From Verrucomicrobiota bacterium (GTDB taxonomy: Bacteria; Verrucomicrobiota; Verrucomicrobiia; Palsa-1439): DNA of 64,000 bases. Of the stretch, positions 9,569 through 54,311 are shown in pieces (position 1 is the first letter of the stretch; each line of letters begins with the position of its first letter). Under the pieces are notes generated by a model. The model searched no databases. It saw nothing but the letters and a program-made list of their open reading frames with translations, and was not told where the DNA came from. Both the position numbers and the translations under genes were made by a program. The stretch is taken from positions 3,701-67,700 of the forward strand of contig JBAXYB010000002.1 in assembly GCA_037127585.1 (NCBI GenBank), given 5' to 3'.

Positions 9569-9580
9569 AGGGAACTCCGG

Positions 9581-10690
9581 TTATTGGTCGCGCGGGTCGC
9601 GGTTGAGCGACGGGAGCGGATGCGGGCGCACGAGCGTGCCGCCTTGTTCGTAGGACTCAATCGCCGCGAACGTGTATTCGAGCGTCGCCAACGCATCCCG
9701 CCCGGACGAGCGCAGGGCGTGTTTCGGCACGCGATTCGTCAGGTCTTCAAGATAGGCGTGGATGCGCGTCGGAAACGTCGCGCCGAAATCTTTGACGCCG
9801 GTATCCGTGACAACCGGGGTGGGTTGCTGGCCGAGGCCGAACGACTGGCCTGCCGCGGGGGCCGGGTAGTAGGTCAGTTTCTCGGTGACGTTCTCGATGC
9901 AGAACGTGCCTTTCGTGCCGCCGAGTTCAAAACTCCACCAACCGCCCAACCCCATAGTCGCGTCGCCGCGCGAACTAAAAAGATAGCCGATGGCGCCGCT
10001 CTGGAATTTCACGTGGACGCTGGCGATCGACACCATTAAATCCGCGGCATGCCGGCGCACGCTGGGGCGATCCATGAACGCCTGGATGTGCGTGATGTCG
10101 CCGCAGAAATGCCGGAGCAAACTGAACGGGTGCGCGAGAAACGCCTTGAGATGGGCGTAGGGGAAGCCGTCGAAATTCGGACCCGCGCCGGCTTTGTAGG
10201 TGTCTTCGCCGCCGACGAAGCCCGCCCGGTGCAGACAGTAAATCTGTTCACCGATCTTGCCGTCCGCCATCAACTGCTTCGCCTGCCGGGCCGGTTCGGT
10301 GAAAAAGTGGTTCAGGTTGCAGCCGAGGTACAAATCCTTTTCCGCGGCGAATTTCACCAAATCGCGCGCTTCCTGGATGTCATTGGAAATGGGTTTTTCC
10401 ACCAGCACATTCTTGCCGGCGGCGAGGGCAAGCATCGCGGGCGCGAAATGCCAACTGCCGTTTTCGCTGCCGCCCGTCGAAACATCGACGATGTCCAACT
10501 CGGGATGCGCGGCGAGCATGTCCTCGAGCCGGTAGTAGGCTTTGACTTTGTGCTTGGCGGCGACTTCATCCGCGCGGCTCTTGACCACATCGCAAACGGC
10601 GACAAGTTTCGCGAGCGCGTCCGTCGCATAACTCTGCGCGTGTGTCTGCCCGATGCCTTTTAATCCAACGACTCCGACGTTTAATGCCAT
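9581..10690 (-). CDS. Gfo/Idh/MocA-family oxidoreductase (paralog of 4699..5688)
   Basis: ORF 9581..10783. Start at Met32 (MALNVGVVGLKGIGQ). VEKPISNDI ... LGCNLNHFF closely parallels the 4699..5688 product. Confidence 0.85.
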   Translation of the reverse strand: MALNVGVVGLKGIGQTHAQSYATDALAKLVAVCDVVKSRADEVAAKHKVKAYYRLEDMLAAHPELDIVDVSTGGSENGSWHFAPAMLALAAGKNVLVEKPISNDIQEARDLVKFAAEKDLYLGCNLNHFFTEPARQAKQLMADGKIGEQIYCLHRAGFVGGEDTYKAGAGPNFDGFPYAHLKAFLAHPFSLLRHFCGDITHIQAFMDRPSVRRHAADLMVSIASVHVKFQSGAIGYLFSSRGDATMGLGGWWSFELGGTKGTFCIENVTEKLTYYPAPAAGQSFGLGQQPTPVVTDTGVKDFGATFPTRIHAYLEDLTNRVPKHALRSSGRDALATLEYTFAAIESYEQGGTLVRPHPLPSLNRDPRDQ

Positions 10691-35898: not shown

Positions 35899-36471
35899 TC
35901 AATAACAACCGCGCAATTTCTCCTTCAACGCTTCCCGGGCCCGATTCAGCAACGATTTCACCGCCGACACCGAACACCCCAGCACCACGGCGATTTCCTC
36001 ATACGCCAGACCCTCGAATCGGCAGAGAATCACCGCCGTCCGTTGCGCCTCCGGCAACGTCTGGATGGCGGCGTGAATCGTGTCCTGCAACTCCCGCTCG
36101 ACAACTTCCTGCGCCGGATCCGCTGTCCGCGCATCGGCAAACTGGCGAGCACTTTCCTCGTTTTCGGTGAGCGCGTCGAGCGACTCCGTCGCCCGTCGGC
36201 CGCGGCGCCGGTATTCATTGAGAACCGTATTGCGCGTGATGGTGAATAGCCACGTCGTGAATTTCGCCGTCGCTTGATACCGGCCCGCCGACCGGAAGAC
36301 TTGGATGAAGACGCGCTGCGCGAGGTCTTCAGCTTCCCAGGCGTCGCCGATACTCCGGTAAATCATGTTGATGACGGGCCGCTGGTAGCGCTCGATCAAT
36401 TCGCGAAAAGCATCCTCATCGCCCTCTTTGACACGGGTCATGAGGACGAGATCGGTATCGTTGGAAGCCAT
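35899..36471 (-). CDS. ECF-subfamily RNA polymerase sigma-70 factor
   Basis: ORF 35899..36567. Start at Met33. Region 2 (FRELIERYQRPVINMIYRSIGDAWEAEDLAQRVFIQVF) and region 4 HTH (AQRTAVILCRFEGLAYEEIAVVLGCSVSAVKSLLNRAR). Confidence 0.8.
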   Translation of the reverse strand: MASNDTDLVLMTRVKEGDEDAFRELIERYQRPVINMIYRSIGDAWEAEDLAQRVFIQVFRSAGRYQATAKFTTWLFTITRNTVLNEYRRRGRRATESLDALTENEESARQFADARTADPAQEVVERELQDTIHAAIQTLPEAQRTAVILCRFEGLAYEEIAVVLGCSVSAVKSLLNRAREALKEKLRGCY

Positions 36472-36544
36472 CGCCAGCAAGATTAGCTGAAGGACTCCAA
36501 CACCGCAACGCCGGCAAGGTTGCGCGACGATAGGTTCGATCACG

Positions 36545-37339
36545 TCAACGAGAAGCGGGGTTAACAACCGGCAGTGTATCTATACAATAGCGGATGCTTT
36601 CTTCTAGGACTGGACCTGAACGAGCATTGATGTGGATTGAACGGACGCTATTCCACCAAAGGATTTCGTTGGTTTGCCCATCTACCAAGGCCACGATATT
36701 TTGCACTTGGCCGGGGGATTCGTAGAGCGGTGTCACCGCAACGCCAGTGGCGATGCCTGTGGCCACACCGATAAGGATTCCGAGTGCCATCTTGCCACGG
36801 CGCTTGTTACGTGCCATACGCGATTCGAGAAATACGGAACTATCCATCAAGAGGATCGCTGGAGCGTCTTGCAGGCCGAGAGCGATCTTCAGTTCCGTCA
36901 AACATTCGCCCATCTGATAATGAAATGGCACGGGCTGTTTACGTTGACGATCTTGCAAAATCTTAAAGCTCAGGAGCCAAAATTCATCCTGTACTGCCTG
37001 TAATGTTGTAGCTGTGTTTATATCAAATTGTGCCCAGTCCTCGTTCAGGCAAAGGGGTTGCGGTGAAGCGCGGAACGAGTAACCCCTCTCCGAAAAAACT
37101 TTCTCTACGGCAGCCGCAAGATTGGTCTTAACCAAATGCCCCTGGCGATCCATGTCGAGCGCATTCTGGGTTTTATCGGAATTACCTTTGATGGACAGTC
37201 GCGATGGAACTGCGGCAATTTCGCGATAGGCTGCAGGGTTCGTTCGAAACGACTCGTTAATTCGCAGTGGCGGCGCTTTGCAGCCAATCCAAAGACAAGC
37301 CGAAAGTAAAAAAAACACGCTGAACAGGATTCTTTTCAT
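36545..37339 (-). CDS. lipoprotein with C-terminal glycine-zipper segment, unknown function; lower GC than the surroundings
   Basis: 264 aa. Lipobox LLSAC. GILIGVATGIATGVAV glycine zipper near the C-terminus. By eye ~50 % GC. Confidence 0.55.
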   Translation of the reverse strand: MKRILFSVFFLLSACLWIGCKAPPLRINESFRTNPAAYREIAAVPSRLSIKGNSDKTQNALDMDRQGHLVKTNLAAAVEKVFSERGYSFRASPQPLCLNEDWAQFDINTATTLQAVQDEFWLLSFKILQDRQRKQPVPFHYQMGECLTELKIALGLQDAPAILLMDSSVFLESRMARNKRRGKMALGILIGVATGIATGVAVTPLYESPGQVQNIVALVDGQTNEILWWNSVRSIHINARSGPVLEESIRYCIDTLPVVNPASR

Positions 37340-40213: not shown

Positions 40214-41155
40214 TTGAGGAAGCTCATCATTATTATCGTGCTGGCCTTAATTGCTGTTGCGGCGTGGTGGCTGTCGCGTCGCAACGGGGTCGCCACGACG
40301 GTTTCCGGCACGATCGAAACCGACGAAGTCCACGTCGCCTCCCGCTACGGCGGCCGGGTCATCAAACTCCACGCGCAAGAAGGCGACGCTCTCAAAGCCG
40401 GCCAGCCTATCGCCGAACTCGACGCCACCGAACTCACCTCCCAGCGCGATTACGCCGCCGCCGTTCTTGCCGAGCTCGAACACGGCCCGCGTACCAACGA
40501 GATCGCCGCCGCAAAACACACGTGGGAATCTCTTACCGCGCAACTGACTTCGACGCGCGCCGATGCTGACCGCGCCCGGCAATTATTCGCCAGCAAGACT
40601 ATCTCCGAATCCGAAATGCAGAACACCGTCAGCAAAGCTGACGCGTTGGCACAAAGTGCGGATGCGGCCCGCAAGCAATTCGAACTCCTCGCCGAAGGCA
40701 CGCGCCCCGAACGCATCGACCAAGCCCGCGCGCAGTTGGCGACGATCGAAGCCCAACTCCGCGAAATGCGAATCGTCGCGCCGAGTGATTGTGTGCTCGA
40801 AGTCCTCAGCGTCAAAGTCGGCGACGTCTTACCGGCAAATCGTGAAGTGGCGACGCTGTTGCTGACTCAACATCTCTGGGTGCGCGTGTTCGTACCGGAA
40901 ACGTGGCTCGGATTGATCCAAGTCGGCCAGACACCCAAAGTGCGGACCGACTCCACGCCCGACCGGGAATTCACCGGCACCGTCGAACAGATCAACCGGC
41001 AGGCCGAGTTCACACCACGCAATGTCCAAACCGTTGAGGACCGCATCCGGCAAGTCTTCGGCGTCAAAGTCCGGCTACCCACCGATACCGGCCTGTTGCG
41101 CGCCGGTATGTCGGTGGATGTTTTGTTCCCCAACGTCCCGCCGCCGCCCCGGTAA
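40214..41155 (+). CDS. HlyD-family membrane fusion / secretion protein
   Basis: 313 aa. N-terminal TM, coiled coil, HlyD barrel motifs. Precedes the ABC-2 ATPase and permease. Confidence 0.8.
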   Translation: MRKLIIIIVLALIAVAAWWLSRRNGVATTVSGTIETDEVHVASRYGGRVIKLHAQEGDALKAGQPIAELDATELTSQRDYAAAVLAELEHGPRTNEIAAAKHTWESLTAQLTSTRADADRARQLFASKTISESEMQNTVSKADALAQSADAARKQFELLAEGTRPERIDQARAQLATIEAQLREMRIVAPSDCVLEVLSVKVGDVLPANREVATLLLTQHLWVRVFVPETWLGLIQVGQTPKVRTDSTPDREFTGTVEQINRQAEFTPRNVQTVEDRIRQVFGVKVRLPTDTGLLRAGMSVDVLFPNVPPPPR

Positions 41156-41159
41156 GCCG

Positions 41160-42107
41160 ATGATCGAGTGCGCCAATCTGACGAAGAAGTTTGGCGATTT
41201 CACGGCGGTCGACAACGTGAGTTTTCGTGTCGAGAAACAATCTATCTTCGGCTTCCTCGGCCCGAACGGCTCCGGCAAGACGACGGTTATCCGGATGCTC
41301 TGCGGCATTCTCGAACCGACCAGCGGTGACGCGCGCATCGGCGGCGTGGATGTGGTGCGCGACACGGAACGCGTCAAGGGCAGCATTGGTTACATGTCGC
41401 AGAAGTTCTCGCTCTACGATGAGTTGACGGTGAATGAGAATCTTTTGTTCTACGCGCAACTCTACGGGCTGCGCGGGACGGTGGCGAAGCAACGCCGGGA
41501 TGAACTCGTCGCGCTCACACATCTCGAACCTTATCTCGACCGGCGCGCGGCGTTGTTGTCCGGCGGCTGGCGGCAACGATTGGCGATGGCGTGCGCGTTG
41601 GTGCACAAGCCGAGTGTGTTGTTTCTGGATGAGCCGACCGCCGGTATCGATCCGGTGGCGCGCCGGGAGTTGTGGGATTTGCTCTTCGAGCTTTCCAGTA
41701 ACGGCATGACGCTATTTGTGACGACGCACTATATGGACGAGGCGGAACGCTGTTCGCATGTCGGCTATATCTTCATGTCGAAGCTCATCATCTGCGGCGA
41801 GCCGGATGATCTGAAACAGTTGGCGGACGTCAATCCGCCCGGCACGCGTCGGCTCGACGTGACGTGCGATCATGTGACCGTCGGGTTGCAGGCGGTGCGG
41901 AAACTGGCCGGCGTGCAAGCGGCGACCGTGTTTGGGCAGTCGATGCATCTGCTGGTGGATGAATCGCTGCCGGAGGCGAGTTTGCGGGAGACGTTGGTGA
42001 AAGTGAATGTTCACGCGACGGACATCCGGCCGATTGCGCCGTCGTTGGAAGATGTGTTCGTGGCGTTGACGTCCAAGCATTCCAACAACAACGGAGGTGC
42101 CGCATGA
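41160..42107 (+). CDS. ABC transporter ATP-binding protein (ABC-2 type)
   Basis: ORF 41022..42107. Start at Met47 (MIECANLTKKFGDF). Walker A GPNGSGKTT, signature LSGGWRQRL, Walker B LFLDEPT. Confidence 0.85.
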   Translation: MIECANLTKKFGDFTAVDNVSFRVEKQSIFGFLGPNGSGKTTVIRMLCGILEPTSGDARIGGVDVVRDTERVKGSIGYMSQKFSLYDELTVNENLLFYAQLYGLRGTVAKQRRDELVALTHLEPYLDRRAALLSGGWRQRLAMACALVHKPSVLFLDEPTAGIDPVARRELWDLLFELSSNGMTLFVTTHYMDEAERCSHVGYIFMSKLIICGEPDDLKQLADVNPPGTRRLDVTCDHVTVGLQAVRKLAGVQAATVFGQSMHLLVDESLPEASLRETLVKVNVHATDIRPIAPSLEDVFVALTSKHSNNNGGAA

Positions 42108-43222
42108 ATCCGTTCCGTGGCTTTCGCGCGATTCTCTACAAAGAGTTCAAGGTCATCTTTCGCGACCGTGGGACGCTGTTCTTCATGTTCTTCCCGCCGC
42201 TGCTGCAGATCATCGCGTTTGGCTTCGTGCTCGACAACGACGTGAAACACATGGCGATGGCGGTGTTCAACGAAGACCGCACCGTCGAAAGCCGGCAACT
42301 CATCGATGCGTTCGTCAACACGCAGACGTTTCGCGTCGTAGCCGAAGTGAACAGTCAGGCGGAGTTGGAAGAAATGGTGCGGCGCGGTAAAGCCTACGTG
42401 GGCCTGCAGATCCCGCCCGACTTCACCCGCAAACTCCACGCCAATCAGAAAACCACGTTGCAAGTGCTCATCGATGGCTCGAACTCGACGACGGCATTGC
42501 AGGCGCTCAACACCGCTCTCGGTATTGCAATGCGTAAATCGATCGATGTGTTGTTGGGACAGACTGGCCGGCGTGAACTACCCATCGAGATGCGCCCACA
42601 GGTTCTTTACAACCCGGCCATGCGTGCCCCGAACTTCTTCGTGCCCGGCGTCATCGGTACGGCGTTGCAGATTGCGACCGTGTTCGCAGTGGCAATGGCC
42701 ATCGTGCGCGAACGGGAACGCGGCACGTTGGAGAATCTCATGGTCAGCCCCCTCAGCCGGTGGGGCTTGATGCTCGGCAAGCTCGTACCGTACGTCTGCG
42801 TGTCGATGACAATGGCACTGTTCCTCTTCACGATTCTCCGCTGGGTGTTTCTCGTCCCGATTCAGGGCAGCTTGGTGATGCTCTTTATGGCGGCGCTGCT
42901 GTACGTTTTCGCGCTCGCGTGTCTTGGGTTGCTCATATCGACGAAAGCAAAATCGCAGAACGAAGCGATGCAGATGAGCATGACGATCATGTTGCCGTCG
43001 ATTTTCTTCAGCGGCTTTATCTTCCCGCGTGAAACGATGCCGGCAATCTTCTATTGGCTCAGCACGCTCTTGCCGGCGACGTACTTCATTGAGTTGATGC
43101 GCGCGATCATTCTGCGCGGCGCGACTTTCTTCGAGTTCTGGCGGCACCTCTTGATTCTCGCGGTGATGGGCGTGGTCCTCTTCGCCCTGTGCGCCCTGCG
43201 TTTTAAGAAGAAGTTGGCGTAG
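42104..43222 (+). CDS. ABC-2 type transporter permease
   Basis: 372 aa polytopic membrane protein. 4-nt overlap with the ATPase gene. Confidence 0.8.
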   Translation: MNPFRGFRAILYKEFKVIFRDRGTLFFMFFPPLLQIIAFGFVLDNDVKHMAMAVFNEDRTVESRQLIDAFVNTQTFRVVAEVNSQAELEEMVRRGKAYVGLQIPPDFTRKLHANQKTTLQVLIDGSNSTTALQALNTALGIAMRKSIDVLLGQTGRRELPIEMRPQVLYNPAMRAPNFFVPGVIGTALQIATVFAVAMAIVRERERGTLENLMVSPLSRWGLMLGKLVPYVCVSMTMALFLFTILRWVFLVPIQGSLVMLFMAALLYVFALACLGLLISTKAKSQNEAMQMSMTIMLPSIFFSGFIFPRETMPAIFYWLSTLLPATYFIELMRAIILRGATFFEFWRHLLILAVMGVVLFALCALRFKKKLA

Positions 43223-44657
43223 TATGCTTCTCGATGTACGCCTTCACCGTGCGCCGGTCGAGGTTCGTACGCCGGGCGACTTCCTCGTACGTGGCGTGCC
43301 GCTCGTGCAAGAGTTTGCAGTACCCGGCCAGCAACGCATCCGCATCGAGCGAACCATCGACTATCCCTGCTTGTAATCGGCCGGTCAGGTTAGGCGCAAT
43401 GGCGCGGGGGTCGCCGGTGTATTGCCGGGTCAGCAGGATGCGCCGGACGGCTTGCTCCAATTCACGGACGTTGCCGGGCCACGCATATTTTGCCGGTAGG
43501 GCTTCGCGCAGTAATGCGATAATCTCCGGCGCCACCTGCCCGGTCAGTCGGCGCACGATCAGACGGAGGAGATCGTCGAGTTCAGCGGGCTCTTCCCGGA
43601 TGCGTTGCCGAAGCGGCGGGACGGTGATGACGTCGGAACACAGCCGGTAAAAGAAGTCGTCACGGAATTGACCGGCGCCGCGCAATTTCTCGATAGGTTT
43701 GTTCGTCGCGCCAATCACCCGGCCCCGAAACCGCAGTTTCTCGTGGCTGCCGACCGGCGCGAACGTCCGTTCCTGGAGCACGTGCAGCAGTTTGATTTGA
43801 ACTGGGACACTCACGTCGCCGATTTCGTCGAGGAAGATCGCGCCGTACGGGCTGCACCGGGCGAACACGCCGTCGTGGTCGGCAATCGCGCCGGTAAAAG
43901 CGCCCTTGCGATGGCCGAATAGCTCTGACTCAATCAGCGTTTCCGGGAATTGCGACAGGTTCAGCGCAAGGAATGTCTTGGTGAAACTCTCAGCAAAACA
44001 GCCGCGTTTCTCGTCGAAGGGGATGAACCCCGACCGGCCGATGGCCGCCGCGGCCGCGCCTTTGCCGGTGCCGGTCTCGCCGAGCAGTAGTGTCGAGAAA
44101 TCTTCCATCCGGTTCCAGAGATGCCGCTCGTAGAGGCGGATATCGTGGGTGAAGACGTTGTTCCAGAGATGCCGGCGGAGTTCCTTCATGCACTCGCTAT
44201 GGCCGACCAGGCCGTGGTGGATAAAGTAGAACGCGCGGCGGACTTGGAAGATGACGGCGAAATACCGGCGCGCTTCGTCCGCCGTGAAACCGCGGCGCGT
44301 AAACAACGTCAGCGCCTTCTTCGCGAACGGTACCGGGACCGAGCGATCGCCGGCCGCGATCTGGTCGGCAATGAGTTGGTCGAAGGCGCTGAGATACCGG
44401 TGGTAGATTTCGTAGAGACACGCCGACCGGAGAATCTCGCGGTCCGCGTCGTCGACCTGCTTGAAGTTGGTGAGACCGGCGGCGTGGAGTTTGTGGAGTT
44501 CTTCATTCCAACGCTCGACCGGTGACACATCCTTGCCGCCGATAATCTGAAGCTGCAACTGATCGAACTCATCGCTGAAGGGATTACAAGCCGCCGCCCG
44601 GGTGACGAGGATGAGGAACTCGCGTTGGGCAGCCGGGAGGAGTTTTACGCTAGCCAT
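43203..44657 (-). CDS. sigma-54-dependent transcriptional activator (AAA+ NtrC-family central domain, C-terminal HTH; N-terminal sensory domain unassigned)
   Basis: 484 aa. Walker A GETGTGKG, GAFTGA sigma-54 contact motif, Walker B IFLDEIGD. Confidence 0.8.
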   Translation of the reverse strand: MASVKLLPAAQREFLILVTRAAACNPFSDEFDQLQLQIIGGKDVSPVERWNEELHKLHAAGLTNFKQVDDADREILRSACLYEIYHRYLSAFDQLIADQIAAGDRSVPVPFAKKALTLFTRRGFTADEARRYFAVIFQVRRAFYFIHHGLVGHSECMKELRRHLWNNVFTHDIRLYERHLWNRMEDFSTLLLGETGTGKGAAAAAIGRSGFIPFDEKRGCFAESFTKTFLALNLSQFPETLIESELFGHRKGAFTGAIADHDGVFARCSPYGAIFLDEIGDVSVPVQIKLLHVLQERTFAPVGSHEKLRFRGRVIGATNKPIEKLRGAGQFRDDFFYRLCSDVITVPPLRQRIREEPAELDDLLRLIVRRLTGQVAPEIIALLREALPAKYAWPGNVRELEQAVRRILLTRQYTGDPRAIAPNLTGRLQAGIVDGSLDADALLAGYCKLLHERHATYEEVARRTNLDRRTVKAYIEKHTTPTSS

Positions 44658-44680
44658 ACATTATTTGTAGCATGGCTAGT
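44641..44680. promoter_or_regulatory. 8-bp inverted repeat CTAGCCAT-N14-ATGGCTAG in the divergent region between the sigma-54 activator and the membrane-protein/rSAM cluster
   Basis: Read directly from the sequence; it overlaps the activator start codon region. Confidence 0.3.
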
Positions 44681-44784
44681 CATTTACTGTCCATCACTGG
44701 GATCGCACCTGACCGGAACTCGTGCAAATTCACCATTTCCGACACTGGCACGGCGGCAGCGTAAGGGTTTGAGTGGAGAACATC

Positions 44785-45270
44785 ATGAAGAGGCAAAATC
44801 CAATCAACCCGTTTGACCTCCTTGCGTTGGTCCTTGCCGGTGCGATGATTGAATGCCGAAGCCGGCCAGCGTGGGCGGTATTGATCGCGGTGTCCGCGCT
44901 AGCGGTCGGGCTGGGCACGTTCAGCTTCGCGACGGCCATCACGCAATTTGGCGGATTGTCCGGTATCGCCTGCGCGGCCATTGGATACATAGCACTACTA
45001 TGTATCAGGCAATCCGGCGCTGGCCGGTACGTGATGCTGGGCGCGCTGCTCCTGCTGGCCGGCAAGATCCTCTGGGAATGCGCCACTCACCGCGCACTCT
45101 TTGTCGCCAGCGATAGCCGGTTAGTCGTCTTCCCACTCGCCCATGCCATTGGGCTGGCCAGTGCATTTGGGCTTTGGCTTGGGACCAGCACTTTTCAACA
45201 ACGTCGGCGCATCCATCAAACCGAAAGGCGCGATCGTTCCGTGGCAACGACCGTCACAGTTATCCCATGA
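44785..45270 (+). CDS. small polytopic membrane protein, rhomboid-like (GxSG and AHxxG motifs), rhombosortase-like candidate
   Basis: ORF 44773..45270. FGGLSGIACAAIGY and PLAHAIGLASAFGL resemble rhomboid TM4 Ser and TM6 His motifs. Short (~161 aa). Confidence 0.4.
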   Translation: MKRQNPINPFDLLALVLAGAMIECRSRPAWAVLIAVSALAVGLGTFSFATAITQFGGLSGIACAAIGYIALLCIRQSGAGRYVMLGALLLLAGKILWECATHRALFVASDSRLVVFPLAHAIGLASAFGLWLGTSTFQQRRRIHQTERRDRSVATTVTVIP

Positions 45271-45695
45271 ACGCGACCCCGGTAACACTGAACTGGTTTG
45301 TCGGCTGGTGGTTGATCCTGGCCGGCTTTGCCAGTGGTGCGGTGATTGGATTGTTCTTTCACCAGGAAAAATTTCTCGGCGGGTACGGCTCGTTTCGGCG
45401 GCGGCTGTTGCGGCTGGGCCACATCGCGTGCGCAGCGTTGGGGATGTTGAACTTGATAGTCGCCGTGGCGCCGGTGATGTCGCCGTTGCTGGCGGTTGGC
45501 GGGGTCTTGATGCCGACGGTTTGTTTTCTGACGGCGTGGAAGGCGCAATGCCGGCACTTGTTTGCGATACCGGTGCTGGCGTTGGTGGCAGGAGTGGTGG
45601 TGGTGATGTGGTGTAGTGGCGCTTCTGTGAAGCGCCCCGTCGTGGCGGGACAACTGCCCGCGCTTCACAGAAGCGCGGCTACAACCGGAGATTGA
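45267..45695 (+). CDS. small membrane protein (4 TM); C-terminal ~30 aa encoded by a palindromic repeat element
   Basis: ORF 45174..45695. Start at Met32. The C-terminus VVVVMWCSGASVKRPVVAGQLPALHRSAATTGD is the translation of the family-1 repeat. Confidence 0.4.
   Translation: MNATPVTLNWFVGWWLILAGFASGAVIGLFFHQEKFLGGYGSFRRRLLRLGHIACAALGMLNLIVAVAPVMSPLLAVGGVLMPTVCFLTAWKAQCRHLFAIPVLALVAGVVVVMWCSGASVKRPVVAGQLPALHRSAATTGD
45611..45686. repeat. palindromic element family 1: GTGTAGT-GGCGCTTCTGTGAAGCGCC ... CGCGCTTCACAGAAGCGC-GGCTACAACC (two hairpin units in opposite orientation, 22-nt spacer)
   Basis: The two 17-nt cores are perfect reverse complements and are each self-complementary (GCGCTTC-TGT-GAAGCGC). 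Confidence 0.7.
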
Positions 45696-45697
45696 CG

Positions 45698-47119
45698 ATG
45701 AAAATTGGTTTTTTGGCGATGAGCGGGATCCGGGCGCATGACCCGGAATTGTTGAAACTCGGATTGACGTTGCCGGGGTTTGTCGAGCGCAGCAAGGCGA
45801 TTGCGTCGCTGCCAAGTCTGGGGTTGCTCTATCTCGCGGCGGTGACGCCGGCCGGACACGAACTCGAATACTTCGAGGCCGAGGCGGACGGGAAGGAGTC
45901 GGTCGCGCTGTACGATTGCGATCTCGTGGCGATCAGCACGTTCTCGGCGCAGGTGTTCGAAGCGTACGCGATTGCGGATCGGCTCCGGCTGGCCGGCGTG
46001 AAGGTGGCGTTGGGCGGGTTGCATGTGACGGCGTTGCCGGCCGAGGCGTTCGCGCACGCGGACTATGTGGTGACCGGCGAAGGCGAGAACGTGTGGCCGG
46101 AAGTTGTGCGATCCGCGGAACGTGACGCGCCGCCGCGGACGTTCGCAGCGCAAATGTATCCGGCGGTCGATGTGACGCGCTTGCCGGTGCCGCGCTATGA
46201 TTTGTTGGGCGTCCGAACAGGAGAATCGATGTGGGAGCGGCGTCATTCCCCTCAGCCGGTTGCGGCGGGGACGCCGCTCCCACAACAACCGCCCGCTATC
46301 CGGTACAACCGGTTCACAGTGCAAACGACGCGCGGGTGTCCGTGGCGGTGCGAGTTCTGCGCGTCGAACGTCATGCTCGGCCAGCCGTACCGGAAGCGGC
46401 CGGTGTGGGACGTGGTCCGCGACATCGGCACGATCCAGCAAGTGCGCGAACGTCCATTCATCGAGTTTGCCGATGACAATACGTTCGTCGATAAAACGTG
46501 GGGCAAGCAGTTGTGCCGGGCGCTCGCGCCGCTGCACTTGAAATGGTTTACCGAGACCGACATCTCGGTGGCTGAGGATGGGGAGTTGCTCGAGCTGATG
46601 CACGCGGCGGGTTGCCGGCAGATTCTGATTGGGCTGGAGAGTCCGAACGCGTCGCCGTTGCATGGACTGGAGATGAAGGCGGATTTCAAGGCGCGGTGGT
46701 TTACCCGCTACGCCAACGCCATCGAACGCATCCAGTCGCACGGCATCACGGTGAATGGTTGTTTCATCCTCGGCCTCGATGGTCACGACACCGGTATCTT
46801 CGAGCAGGTGCTCGACTTTGCCCGGCAAGTGTCGCTCTACGACGTGCAGATCACGGTGCTGACGGCGTTTCCCGGTACGCCGCTGTATGCACGACTGCTC
46901 CGGGAAGGCCGCGTGATCGAGCCGGGCCGGTGGGATTTGTGCACGCTCTTTGACGTGAATTACCGGCCGGTCGGGATGAGTGCGGACGAACTGCGCGCCG
47001 GCATGCGGTGGTTGACGGAGCGACTTTACAACGACGAATGCACGCAAGCACGGAGGGCGGGATTTTTATCTTCCTTTCGGCGGGCGACGGGAACAGAATT
47101 ACAGACGAAAGCCGCATGA
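45698..47119 (+). CDS. B12-binding domain radical SAM protein (class B rSAM)
   Basis: ORF 45692..47119 (TTG). ATG at 45698 gives MKIGFLAMSG. N-terminal cobalamin-binding domain, CPWRCEFC (CxxxCxxC) cluster motif. Carries a ~19-aa in-frame insertion derived from a palindromic element. Confidence 0.85.
   Translation: MKIGFLAMSGIRAHDPELLKLGLTLPGFVERSKAIASLPSLGLLYLAAVTPAGHELEYFEAEADGKESVALYDCDLVAISTFSAQVFEAYAIADRLRLAGVKVALGGLHVTALPAEAFAHADYVVTGEGENVWPEVVRSAERDAPPRTFAAQMYPAVDVTRLPVPRYDLLGVRTGESMWERRHSPQPVAAGTPLPQQPPAIRYNRFTVQTTRGCPWRCEFCASNVMLGQPYRKRPVWDVVRDIGTIQQVRERPFIEFADDNTFVDKTWGKQLCRALAPLHLKWFTETDISVAEDGELLELMHAAGCRQILIGLESPNASPLHGLEMKADFKARWFTRYANAIERIQSHGITVNGCFILGLDGHDTGIFEQVLDFARQVSLYDVQITVLTAFPGTPLYARLLREGRVIEPGRWDLCTLFDVNYRPVGMSADELRAGMRWLTERLYNDECTQARRAGFLSSFRRATGTELQTKAA
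46230..46284. repeat. palindromic element family 2 copy 2 (TGTGGGAGCGGCGTC ... GACGCCGCTCCCACA), located in frame inside the rSAM CDS
   Basis: 15-nt perfectly complementary arms plus a 26-nt loop. Translated as MWERRHSPQPVAAGTPLPQQ between the rSAM YDLL and TTRGCPWRCEFC motifs. Confidence 0.7.
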
Positions 47120-48402
47120 AGCCTTCCAAACAAATCCAATGGTTGTACGAGGAACTTCCCAAACTCACCCAAGCCGGAGTGGTACCGGCGGAGGTGGCGG
47201 AGAAACTCCGGCAACATTACGGCGCCGCCGAGTGTGGCGGGCGCCGGTGGGCCATTGTGTTGTTCGGCATTTTGGGCGGGGCGCTCATCGGGGCCGGAAT
47301 CATTTTGTTGCTGGCGCATAACTGGGATGAGTTGTCGCGGCCGGTGCGGGCGGTGATTTCGTTTCTGCCATTGGTGATTGCGGTGGCGTTGGCGGCGTTC
47401 GTGATTTGGAAGCGGGCCGGGAGCACGGCGTGGAGCGAGAGCGTCGGGATATTTTGGGCGTTGGCAATCGGCGCGACGATTTCGCTGGTGGCGCAGACGT
47501 ATCATATCAGCGGGGATTTCCCGGCGTTCATCCTGACGTGGTCGCTGGCCGGGTTGCCGATTGTGTATCTGTTGAACTGTAGTTCGGCGGCGCTGTTGTT
47601 TTGGGTTGGCGCAACGGTGTGGGCGGGACACGCGTGCTGGAATCGCGACGAGGCGATGTGGTTCTGGCCGTTGGCGGCGTTGGCGGTACCGCATCTGTGG
47701 CTAGTGGCTCGAACAAACCGGTACCGGCCGAGGGTGGCGATGCTGATCTGGGGGCTGGCCGGGTGCGCGGCGTTTGGGATTGGGTTTGGCCTGACGCACC
47801 GGATCGAACACGCTTGGATCCCGGTCTTCACAAGTTATTTTGCGGTGTTGTACATGATCGGCAGCCGGTGGTTCGATGAGGGGCGCACTTTCTGGCAGCG
47901 GCCTCTCCAAACTATCGGGGCGTTGGGCGTCATCGCGCTCGGGGTGGCGCTGACGTTTGGGGATGCGTGGCGCGGCACGTTCCGGCAGGGGGACTGGCCG
48001 GGTCTTTTTCAGTCGCCCTTGGTGGTGTTGCCTGTGGCGGCGGTGGTGTTGTGGGTTTACACGTGGACCCGGCAGGATCCGGTGGCGTTGCTTTTCGGTG
48101 GGTTACCGGTGGTGGGGATGATTGGGACCGCACTGGCGGCCGGGCACGCTGGGGTGGTGGTGCTGGTGTTAATGAACGTGTACGTGTTGGGATTAGGCGT
48201 GGCGCTGATTACGTTGGGGGTGCGCGATCAGCGGTTGGGCGTGGTGAATCTGGGGATGCTGGTGACGTCGGTGCTCATCATCGCGCGGTTCTTCGACAGC
48301 GACATGGGGTTTGTGCTGCGCGGACTGGCGTTCATCGCGGTGGGGATCGGTTTCTTGGTGACGAATGTGATGCTGATTCGACGGAAGGGAGGCGCTCAAT
48401 GA
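47116..48402 (+). CDS. DUF2157-like polytopic membrane protein (soluble N-terminal domain plus ~10 TM)
   Basis: ORF 47008..48402. Start at the Met giving MKPSKQIQWLYEEL (47116), overlapping the rSAM stop by 4 nt. Confidence 0.5.
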   Translation: MKPSKQIQWLYEELPKLTQAGVVPAEVAEKLRQHYGAAECGGRRWAIVLFGILGGALIGAGIILLLAHNWDELSRPVRAVISFLPLVIAVALAAFVIWKRAGSTAWSESVGIFWALAIGATISLVAQTYHISGDFPAFILTWSLAGLPIVYLLNCSSAALLFWVGATVWAGHACWNRDEAMWFWPLAALAVPHLWLVARTNRYRPRVAMLIWGLAGCAAFGIGFGLTHRIEHAWIPVFTSYFAVLYMIGSRWFDEGRTFWQRPLQTIGALGVIALGVALTFGDAWRGTFRQGDWPGLFQSPLVVLPVAAVVLWVYTWTRQDPVALLFGGLPVVGMIGTALAAGHAGVVVLVLMNVYVLGLGVALITLGVRDQRLGVVNLGMLVTSVLIIARFFDSDMGFVLRGLAFIAVGIGFLVTNVMLIRRKGGAQ

Positions 48403-48968
48403 ACTGGCGCAAGAGTGTTTTGATTGTGGTGGCGGCCGGACAGTTGGCGATCCCGGCGTATCTGATTCACCGGCAGGAGACGACGTTGCGGGAGGGGCGG
48501 GCGTACAAGTTCAAGACGGCGCCGGTCGATCCGTACGACGCGTTTCGCGGCCGGTATGTGGCGTTGCGGTATGAACAAGACCACGCGCCATGGCCGGGGA
48601 CGAACCAAGTCCTGCGTCAGCAGCGAGCCTATGCGCGGGTTGAAGAGGGCGTGGACGGGTTCGCCTTGGTGCGTGAAGTCACGCCGCGGCCGCCGGTGAC
48701 AGGGGATTTCTTCAAGGTCCAGGCGAATTACGCGGGCTGGGGCACGAATGCCGGGACGGTCTACTTCACAATGCCGTTTGACCGGTATTATATGGAGGAG
48801 ACGAAAGCTCCGAAAGCCGAGCAAGTTTACAGGGCCAACAACCGGCGCGGTCAGACCAATCAGAACACGTATGCCGTCGTGCGCATCCGGCAGGGCCACG
48901 CGGCGCTGGAAAATCTCTTCGTTGCCGGCCAACCGATCACCGAGATGTTGCGCGAGAAGCAACCGTAG
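48392..48968 (+). CDS. membrane-anchored GDYXXLXY-family-like protein
   Basis: ATG at 48392 within ORF 47967..48968. N-terminal TM then a soluble domain containing a degenerate GDFFKVQANY motif. Overlaps the upstream gene's end. This family typically partners DUF2157 proteins. Confidence 0.45.
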
Positions 48969-54234: not shown

Positions 54235-54311
54235 TGGTGCGGCCGGCGGGAGTCGAACCCACAACCTTTGCCTTCGGAGGGCAACGCTCTATCCAGTTGA
54301 GCTACGGCCGC
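54235..54311 (-). tRNA. tRNA-Arg (anticodon CCG), 77 nt, with encoded CCA
   Basis: Minus-strand sequence GCGGCCGTAGCTCAACTGGATAGAGCGTTGCCCTCCGAAGGCAAAGGTTGTGGGTTCGACTCCCGCCGGCCGCACCA folds as a cloverleaf (7-bp acceptor, D, anticodon stem TTGCC/GGCAA with loop CTCCGAA, T-arm GTGGG/CCCGC). Confidence 0.9.

Follow-up and report, generated by a model that had tools for sequence, protein, structure and literature searches.

A conserved pairing of a B12-binding radical SAM enzyme and a four-helix membrane protein in a mosaic gene cluster of Verrucomicrobiota with a predicted sigma-54 promoter

A stretch of 64,000 nucleotides from a Verrucomicrobiota metagenome-assembled genome (MAG; contig JBAXYB010000002.1), here called the window, contains five closely packed genes, gA to gE, next to a divergent gene for a sigma-54 enhancer-binding protein (EBP). 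The question raised by this locus is whether the five genes form one system, and what such a system would do. A preliminary description had proposed a membrane-associated cluster under sigma-54 control in which a rhomboid protease, C-methylation by a B12-dependent radical S-adenosylmethionine (SAM) enzyme and a DUF2157/GDYXXLXY pair work together. The membrane-associated, sigma-54-linked cluster stands, but the single integrated pathway is not supported, because gA is truncated and the modules are separate. The five genes are a lineage-specific assembly of three separable modules behind one sigma-54 promoter. With confidence only slightly better than even, we read the locus as a sigma-54-dependent mosaic envelope operon with a core, gB-gC, that probably modifies a membrane-embedded lipid. 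The genes are the following:

43203-44657, minus strand: sigma-54 EBP, 484 amino acids, from the open reading frame (ORF) listing and inspection of start codons
44785-45270, plus strand: gA, N-terminally truncated rhombosortase-like membrane protein, 161 amino acids
45267-45695, plus strand: gB, orphan protein with four transmembrane (TM) segments, 142 amino acids
45698-47119, plus strand: gC, class B (B12-binding) radical SAM enzyme, 473 amino acids
47116-48402, plus strand: gD, protein with an N-terminal DUF2157 domain, 428 amino acids
48399-48968, plus strand: gE, GDYXXLXY family protein with one N-terminal TM segment, 189 amino acids

Reading of the ORFs places the divergent activator and the five plus-strand genes where the preliminary description had them. 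The 4-nt overlaps said to run through gA-gE were found for gA/gB, gC/gD and gD/gE (ATGA) but not for gB/gC, where the junction is a gap of 2 nt and an overlap of 4 nt is obtained only with TTG at 45692. The ATG at 45698 was taken as the start of gC because its homologues begin MKIGFLAMSG.

The pairing of gB with gC is the most constant feature of the locus. Eighty genome loci with relatives of gC were fetched and their six-frame ORFs were searched with the proteins of the window. All related loci in this study are on MAG or metagenome contigs, with near-duplicates among them (L099-L101, L141/L142), and gene starts in them are partly our own calls. gB adjoins gC in essentially every locus with enough flanking sequence; the order gB then gC is found in 72 of 78 non-duplicate loci and a 4-nt overlap in 58 of the 78. 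The pair spans Planctomycetota, Verrucomicrobiota, Acidobacteriota and Sumerlaeota, and the unit is 55-85% identical across these deeply separated phyla. gB is an obligate partner of gC, and the two are a real conserved unit. Beyond the window's own contigs (L001, L002), gD and gE together were found in one locus (L014), a gA-like gene in one (L008) and the EBP in a minority. All-against-all clustering of the neighbours of gB-gC in 82 loci gave no widely conserved neighbour besides the EBP, which sits divergently beside the pair in two phyla with recognisable promoters. What looked like a fusion of gB and gC in L087 is a frameshift artefact. A gB homologue of 471 amino acids, P0307, has an additional C-terminal region, which is helical-repeat-like, possibly TPR, and not a radical SAM protein.

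The class B assignment of gC was confirmed by matches to the B12-binding domain (PF02310, 51.8 against a cut-off of 32.1) and to Radical_SAM (PF04055, 46.2 against 29.5), accompanied by a weak Pfam match to DUF4070. The protein is 100% identical to NCBI MEI6082783.1, has no strong TM segment by hydropathy and carries the CxxxCxxC motif as RGCPWRCEFC (RGCPWRCxFC in the family), with C214, C218 and C221 invariant in alignment A1. The number of homologues exceeds 8000, and among the 120 that were listed, at 69-85% identity, are proteins of Verrucomicrobiota, Acidobacteriota and Planctomycetota. Comparison with the NCBIfam equivalogs gave 22 matches, none near its cut-off: the best is HpnJ (99.3 against 577.6), followed by BchE, the uncharacterised archaeal family TIGR04013, PhpK-type P-methylases, HpnR (70 against 650) and the ladderane enzyme (56 against 360). 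Among solved structures gC comes closest to MgmA/QCMT (9CCB), AprD4 and TsrM, with which it shares about 16% identity and which it matches in fold at E about 1e-13. A review of lipid radical SAM enzymes that extends to 2025 (PMC13459092) does not include gC. As possible identities of gC, Mss, Tes and Gms were considered from their published descriptions: Gms is described as a SPASM/Twitch radical SAM enzyme, and no B12-binding domain is mentioned for Mss and Tes. Judged by these comparisons, gC belongs to a distinct, unnamed and highly conserved subfamily of class B radical SAM enzymes. It also has a Pro/Gln-rich insertion of about 28 residues (residues ~173-201, window ~46214-46300) that is without counterpart in the family consensus and is modelled with low confidence.

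The description of gB as a 4-TM protein agrees with its AlphaFold model, built with database hits, in which four helices are predicted (pLDDT, the confidence score of the model, 83). Clustered at 50% identity, the gB family comprises 594 representatives, and almost all are stand-alone proteins of 70-250 amino acids; the family has no Pfam or NCBIfam assignment and is labelled 'hypothetical' almost everywhere. Planctomycetes bacterium CA13 has a member, CA13_37520. In contrast to the variable third loop, two Arg-rich loops are conserved (FHRExFLGGYxSFRRRLxRLGH and AWRxxFRH), and the invariant residues include Cys, His and Tyr. According to the positive-inside rule both conserved loops would be cytoplasmic, on one face of the membrane, where the soluble radical SAM enzyme sits. 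A Foldseek comparison of the model with the PDB gave nothing below E = 1 (MAPEG, with a TM-score of about 0.45, is not significant). Pfam scans of 27 family members for remote homology rendered weak and scattered hits to DUF2784 (10 of 27, best E 0.008) and LapA_dom (2 of 27), which leaves the NCBI label 'LapA family protein' unsupported.

These properties suggest a division of labour. gB would dock the cytoplasmic gC on the inner-membrane face through its two Arg-rich loops and present a membrane-embedded substrate, most likely a lipid or a lipid anchor, on which gC would perform B12-dependent radical chemistry. Our default guess for the reaction is C-methylation of an unactivated carbon, and rearrangement or C-C coupling is also possible. 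Class B radical SAM enzymes include non-methylating members such as AprD4, OxsB, HpnJ and BchE. We put methylation specifically at rather less than an even chance.

How the genes might be regulated is indicated by the EBP and by the intergenic region between it and gA. The preliminary description had named the activator 'NtrC-type', which is right for the AAA+ core but not for an N-terminal receiver domain. Sigma54_activat (PF00158) matches with 140 bits against a cut-off of 20.2 (7.6e-41) and AAA_lid_14 is also found in Pfam; the core has a Walker A motif (GETGTGKG) and a GAFTGA loop, and a weak helix-turn-helix is seen at the C-terminus. No NCBIfam equivalog cut-off is reached (NtrC 170 against 559, in the AAA+ region only). 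Residues 1-185 match nothing in Pfam or NCBIfam, and no receiver domain was found in them. In related loci this N-terminal domain is present over its whole length in 26 EBP ORFs, some of which lie on near-duplicate contigs. Every Verrucomicrobial copy has it, and it is detectable at E about 1e-12 in four Phycisphaerales EBPs adjoining gB-gC. It was not found in unrelated EBPs of the same loci, and it appears to be a family-specific, sensor-like domain. The elements of the intergenic region, together with one at the end of gE, are:

44650-44679: inverted repeat CTAGCCAT-N14-ATGGCTAG, 8-bp perfect arms
44658-44669: conserved box 1, ACATTATTTGTA, dyad ACA-N6-TGT, putative EBP site
44680-44693: conserved box 2, TCATTTACTGTCCA, consensus CAwTTTaTGTCTA, putative second EBP site
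44746-44760, plus strand: predicted sigma-54 -24/-12 promoter, TGGCACGGCGGCAGC
48947-48963, plus strand: weak terminator-like hairpin with a T-rich tail

The 8-bp inverted repeat of the preliminary description is present; it is unique in the window and did not arise in any of 100 shuffles. Its left arm includes the EBP start codon (CAT, 44655-44657), and its exact centre is box 1 (ACAtaatTTGTA, 44658-44669), which immediately follows that codon here and also in L088, L089, L091, L092 and L094. Alignment A4, of the intergenic regions of seven loci with the shared EBP, contains three conserved blocks, box 1, box 2 and the promoter, within otherwise diverged sequence. The invariant columns are C6, A7, C10, A11, A14, G18, T19 and A20 in box 1 and C32, T39, G40, T41, C42 and A44 in box 2. 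The two boxes are spaced by about 22 bp, or about two helical turns.

A GG-N10-GC site had been suggested to exist upstream of gA, and a search located it at 44746-44760, 39 nt 5' of the gA start codon and about 80 nt 3' of the boxes. Alone the site is weak, with three mismatches to TGGCAC-N5-TTGCW, and it was accepted as the promoter because it is conserved in related loci. In A4 the pattern TGGCA.G......GC is invariant, and the element of the clade is TGGCA[CT]G-N4-nAGC. In L008, L014, L088, L089, L091 and L094 its distance from the first gene is 29-41 nt. It also stands beside the EBP in L092, L093, L102, L106, L108, L110, L131, L141 and L152, and thus accompanies this EBP family in about 15 more loci, regardless of the genes that come next. 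This conservation backs the proposed sigma-54 control of the gene cluster. Two sites about 80 bp upstream of a -24/-12 element are, as far as can be read from the DNA, the classical layout of an EBP-activated promoter. The EBP would bind the two boxes, which overlap its own start codon, and activate the promoter downstream. The transcript would carry the rhombosortase remnant, gB-gC, which would be translationally coupled, and the DUF2157/GDYXXLXY pair. The operon may terminate at the weak hairpin seen where gE ends, with the limit that such sites are no commoner here than in shuffles.

Exact matches to TGGCAYG-N5-AGC number two in the window, the promoter and a match at 36802-36816 on the minus strand. 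The latter was rejected as a promoter; it lies inside a coding region, a 264-amino-acid lipoprotein ORF, and is probably due to chance. In this region (35899-37339) the lipoprotein ORF adjoins a gene resembling, by appearance only, an extracytoplasmic function sigma factor.

Four Phycisphaerales loci have the promoter variant TGGCATGAcATTTGAA. A conserved hairpin, CTCCTTCTGCGGC...GCCGCAGGAG, was observed between the -24/-12-like element and the gB start in L055 (~9572-9625) and in the same region of L057, L058 and L059. It would pair with the GGAG ribosome-binding site and may be a translational control element.

While the EBP, the two boxes and the sigma-54 promoter are constant in the clade, the genes behind them vary between close relatives. 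This cargo includes gB-gC, further B12 radical SAM enzymes with GNAT-like and GH3-like genes, small lipoproteins, rhombosortases with their targets, and DUF2157/GDYXXLXY. Nearly all of it is in or on the membrane, and several of the proteins act on lipids or lipid anchors: Lgt paralogues pass the TIGR00544 cut-off, and ceramidase-family proteins reach 36.4 bits against a cut-off of 32.5. Directly after gB-gC, L007 (9395-16296) and L088 (7335-12700) encode two more B12 radical SAM enzymes, a GNAT-like protein, an unknown protein and a GH3-like adenylating enzyme, joined in L007 by DUF4345 and a Rieske protein. These downstream genes look like a small-molecule or lipid tailoring cluster under the same promoter. 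HMG-CoA reductase and a UbiA-family prenyltransferase follow gB-gC in L089 (7387-11722) and L091 (7349-12893), and both loci have short secreted ORFs of 44-96 amino acids at the operon start. L091 also encodes a 1125-amino-acid PigC/Rph-like phosphoenolpyruvate (PEP)-utilising protein with DUF3419, a domain that is presumably linked to BtaA-type lipid enzymes; the counterpart in L089 is an unannotated 725-amino-acid ORF cut by the contig end. Taken together, these genes hint at prenyl-lipid chemistry in the same regulon.

A membrane-embedded and probably lipid substrate of gC is suggested by circumstantial evidence, namely the lipid-related cargo, the link of gB-gC to the same EBP family in Phycisphaerales and the membrane partner gB. 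The best NCBIfam matches of gC, each far below cut-off, comprise lipid-acting B12 radical SAM enzymes (HpnJ best, HpnR and the ladderane enzyme) as well as BchE and PhpK. For a lipid as the substrate we consider the chances to be about even. Several points weigh against this picture. MgmA, the closest solved structure, methylates a protein and not a lipid. Neither the Pfam nor the PDB searches detected a relative of gB with known function, and the model of gC is of no more than moderate quality (pLDDT 66). The genes around gB-gC are not conserved beyond Verrucomicrobia and some Phycisphaerales, and there they offer no hint of function. The -12 region of the window, CAGC, is unlike the canonical TTGC. 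The gA ORF, read below as a relic, is intact, with no frameshift or stop, and retains its Ser/His dyad. Finally, the many-locus sample is made up of MAG and metagenome contigs, some of them near-duplicate.

In the alternative closest to the preliminary description the five genes are one pathway, in which rhomboid processing, methylation of the substrate or its anchor by the B12 radical SAM enzyme and a DUF2157/GDYXXLXY sorting or modification machine are combined. This is in line with the single promoter common to all five genes and with the 4-nt overlaps, gB/gC excepted. It is also in line with the rhombosortase-family genes found directly upstream of gB-gC in three Verrucomicrobial loci. In L008 gB and gC come after the genes of a rhombotarget lipoprotein, at 296.8 against 150 for TIGR04179, and of a rhombosortase, at 110.5 against 84, and in L090 a VIT-VWA protein with a textbook GlyGly-CTERM end is followed by a canonical rhombosortase (SGMAH). 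The two rhombosortases are mutually distant (27 bits) and each has targets. In L007 just a fragment of the L008-type rhombotarget lipoprotein is left (59.8 bits); the 165-amino-acid ORF at the gA position, considered as a rhomboid, is this fragment. The arrangements in L008, L007 and L090 probably show what once preceded gB-gC in the window.

gA itself, however, fits poorly in an integrated pathway. The rhomboid identity assigned to it was not borne out, with 15.8 bits for Pfam Rhomboid (PF01694) against a cut-off of 22.6 and 53.8 bits for the NCBIfam rhombosortase TIGR03902 against 84, the match covering model positions 34-153 of 154. The homologue in L008 exceeds both cut-offs (TIGR03902 110.5, PF01694 42.2). 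Aligned with this full-length rhombosortase of 199 amino acids, gA starts in mid-TM2 and is without the first ~40-50 residues, which hold TM1, the WR motif of the L1 loop and the His/Asn region of TM2. The sequence 5' of gA holds the promoter and not coding sequence. Relative to GlpG, which served as a guide only, gA likewise starts in mid-TM2; the conclusions are based on the L008 alignment and the coordinates of the hidden Markov models (HMMs). gA keeps the catalytic Ser (GGLSG, TM4) and the TM6 His (PLAHAIGLASAFG), and its GxxxG reads GxxxA. At Ser+4 it has Cys (SGIAC) and not the rhombosortase signature His, as in SGMAH of L090; His is found at this position in nearly all rhombosortases (PMC3237569). 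A search of 5.8 billion proteins rendered no close homologue, the only match being gA itself. The suggested GlyGly-CTERM substrate was looked for among the window ORFs as a Gly/Ser-rich stretch followed by a TM segment and a basic tail; none was found in the 64 kb, the only pattern matches being an ABC-2 permease and a 92-amino-acid protein. Because it is truncated and an orphan, and because the window encodes no GlyGly-CTERM tail, gA is probably a decaying, inactive relic of a rhombosortase gene.

The integrated pathway also requires that gD and gE belong with gB-gC. The family assignments of the pair are firm, with 106.5 bits against 32.4 (1.3e-30) for gD and DUF2157 (PF09925) and 89.5 bits against 27 (2.5e-25) for gE and GDYXXLXY (PF14345). 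gD has about 11 predicted TM segments in all by hydropathy. The name motif of gE reads GRYVALRY, and Arg or Lys in place of the motif Asp (G[RK]YVALxY/F) was observed in five of five Verrucomicrobial gE proteins (window, L014, L090, L093 and L094). Among the 12 loci of close Verrucomicrobial relatives, with radical SAM proteins 72-85% identical, gD-gE follows gB-gC in about seven (window, L014, L093, L094, L090, L105 and L088, the last with DUF2157 seen at the contig end), which speaks for a connection. It does not follow in L007, L008, L089 and L091, and L092 is undetermined.

In a reverse test, 80 metagenome loci with relatives of gE were examined, and in 23 of them the upstream sequence extends over 5 kb or more. 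gD and gE never occur apart in the 80 loci. Of the 23 with long flanks, 11 have the same EBP family and about 12 have neither the EBP nor any radical SAM gene. A true gC orthologue is found in none of the 23 and in one of the 80 overall (L105, 3.3 kb upstream). Eight loci (L099-L102, L106, L110, L131 and L152) have gD-gE with a paralogous B12 radical SAM protein (~180 bits to gC) and no gB. In L108 the EBP stands with VIT-VWA, a rhombosortase and a ceramidase-family protein, then gD-gE, and gB-gC is absent. A ceramidase-family protein followed by gD-gE is also found in L141 and L142, and L141 has the EBP but not gB-gC. Conversely, gB-gC is found without gD-gE in about 70 loci. gD-gE is an independent module that is often on the same regulated promoter. 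The expected co-occurrence of the radical SAM gene with DUF2157/GDYXXLXY and rhombosortase thus recurs in related Verrucomicrobia but in none of the ~67 other gB-gC loci. As every module is found without the others, we regard one pathway for all five genes as unlikely.

A second alternative concerns the substrate of gB-gC, which might be a protein: the pair would methylate or cross-link a lipoprotein or another protein of the membrane. Its target might be gB itself, or a lipoprotein that is made by the Lgt or rhombosortase genes nearby. The closest solved relative of gC is the protein glutamine C-methyltransferase MgmA/QCMT, the accessory genes include lipoproteins, Lgt, rhombosortase targets and the short secreted ORFs of L089 and L091, and gB has invariant Cys, His and Tyr residues. 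However, the similarity to MgmA, at about 16% identity, is generic for class B enzymes, and across the phyla gB-gC has no conserved companion gene for a precursor or target. In addition, the conservation of gB, with whole loops invariant, looks like that of a subunit and not of a substrate. A protein-modifying role appears no more probable than the integrated pathway, and we doubt both to a similar degree. Still less likely is co-transcription only, that is, unrelated membrane genes behind a strong regulated promoter with gB-gC in a housekeeping role such as cofactor or quinone tailoring; it would account for the great differences in cargo between close relatives and the standalone gB-gC of most phyla, but not for the divergent EBP beside gB-gC in two phyla with recognisable promoters, nor for cargo that is consistently membrane or lipid related and not random.

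Three genes for an HlyD-like adaptor, an ABC ATPase and an ABC-2 permease form an operon at 40214-43222 on the plus strand, convergent with the EBP gene, the 3' end of which it overlaps by 20 nt (43203-43222). ABC-2 transporter genes adjoin the EBP also in L089, where the set is complete, and in L092, where part of a permease gene lies at the edge of the contig, and the synteny is therefore conserved. An Rfam scan of the window gave no cobalamin or other riboswitch and a single match, a tRNA at 54238-54311 on the minus strand.

Read as a mosaic envelope operon with gB-gC as its core, a vague membrane cluster becomes a defined unit of a B12 radical SAM enzyme and an obligate 4-TM partner. gB matches no Pfam or NCBIfam family and gC reaches no named NCBIfam cut-off. 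Literature searches on GDYXXLXY/DUF2157, on rhombosortase and radical SAM, and on B12 radical SAM enzymes and Planctomycetes gave no description of the gB-gC module. The locus also supplies a new family of sigma-54 activators with a recognisable operator and promoter. As it would drive swappable lipid and surface-anchoring genes in Verrucomicrobia, this EBP offers a tractable way into the study of envelope remodelling in a phylum that has received little attention.

Lipid-acting class B radical SAM enzymes underlie geochemical biomarkers such as methylhopanoids and the rings and methylations of glycerol dialkyl glycerol tetraethers (GDGTs). If the proposed role of gB-gC is true, a new membrane-tethered member of the class, widespread among soil lineages, could account for lipid structures that are orphans at present. 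At its most speculative, and in our view very improbably, gB-gC would be a so far unrecognised, phylum-spanning enzyme of soil and freshwater bacteria that modifies membrane-lipid tails, carried by Vicinamibacterales, Tepidisphaeraceae, Gemmataceae and relatives of Chthoniobacter. It could then be, for example, the missing mid-chain C-methylase or an oxygen-tolerant tail-coupling enzyme for branched or membrane-spanning lipids such as iso-diabolic acid and those of the branched GDGT type. Most examined iso-diabolic-acid-producing Acidobacteria are without Mss and Tes homologues (PMC13159169).

Parts of the locus resemble several known systems. In PspF-type sigma-54 envelope-stress regulons, as here, an EBP without a receiver domain is combined with a divergent promoter for membrane proteins, but the EBP of the window has an N-terminal domain of ~185 amino acids that PspF lacks, and no PspA, PspB or PspC genes are present. 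The Lia system is connected to DUF2157 through LiaF, the TM region of which (LiaI/LiaF TM domain) matches DUF2157 (PMC11237479); no similarity between gB and DUF2157 was detected. With the rhombosortase/GlyGly-CTERM system (Haft 2011, PMC3237569; Gadwal 2018, PMC6219818) the likeness is one of homology, as gA keeps GGLSG and the TM6 His and complete sets lie directly upstream of gB-gC in L008 and L090. gA differs in being truncated and below cut-off, with Cys at Ser+4 and no nearby target.

For gC, the class B architecture is that of MgmA/QCMT (9CCB), AprD4 (6FD2) and TsrM (6WTE), the best matches in sequence and fold. These enzymes, at about 16% identity, act on protein Gln, an aminoglycoside and free Trp, respectively, and have no membrane subunit. 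The lipid-modifying HpnP/HpnR, HpnJ, GrsA/B, Gmm and ladderane B12 radical SAM enzymes (PMC13459092) share with gC the B12-binding domain, the radical SAM core and a weak DUF4070 match, and a membrane-embedded substrate is presumed for them as for gC. In contrast to these, gC is far below the family cut-offs and no hopanoid, GDGT or ladderane genes are nearby. The review of these enzymes mentions no membrane partner, whereas gC has a nearly invariant one with four TM segments.

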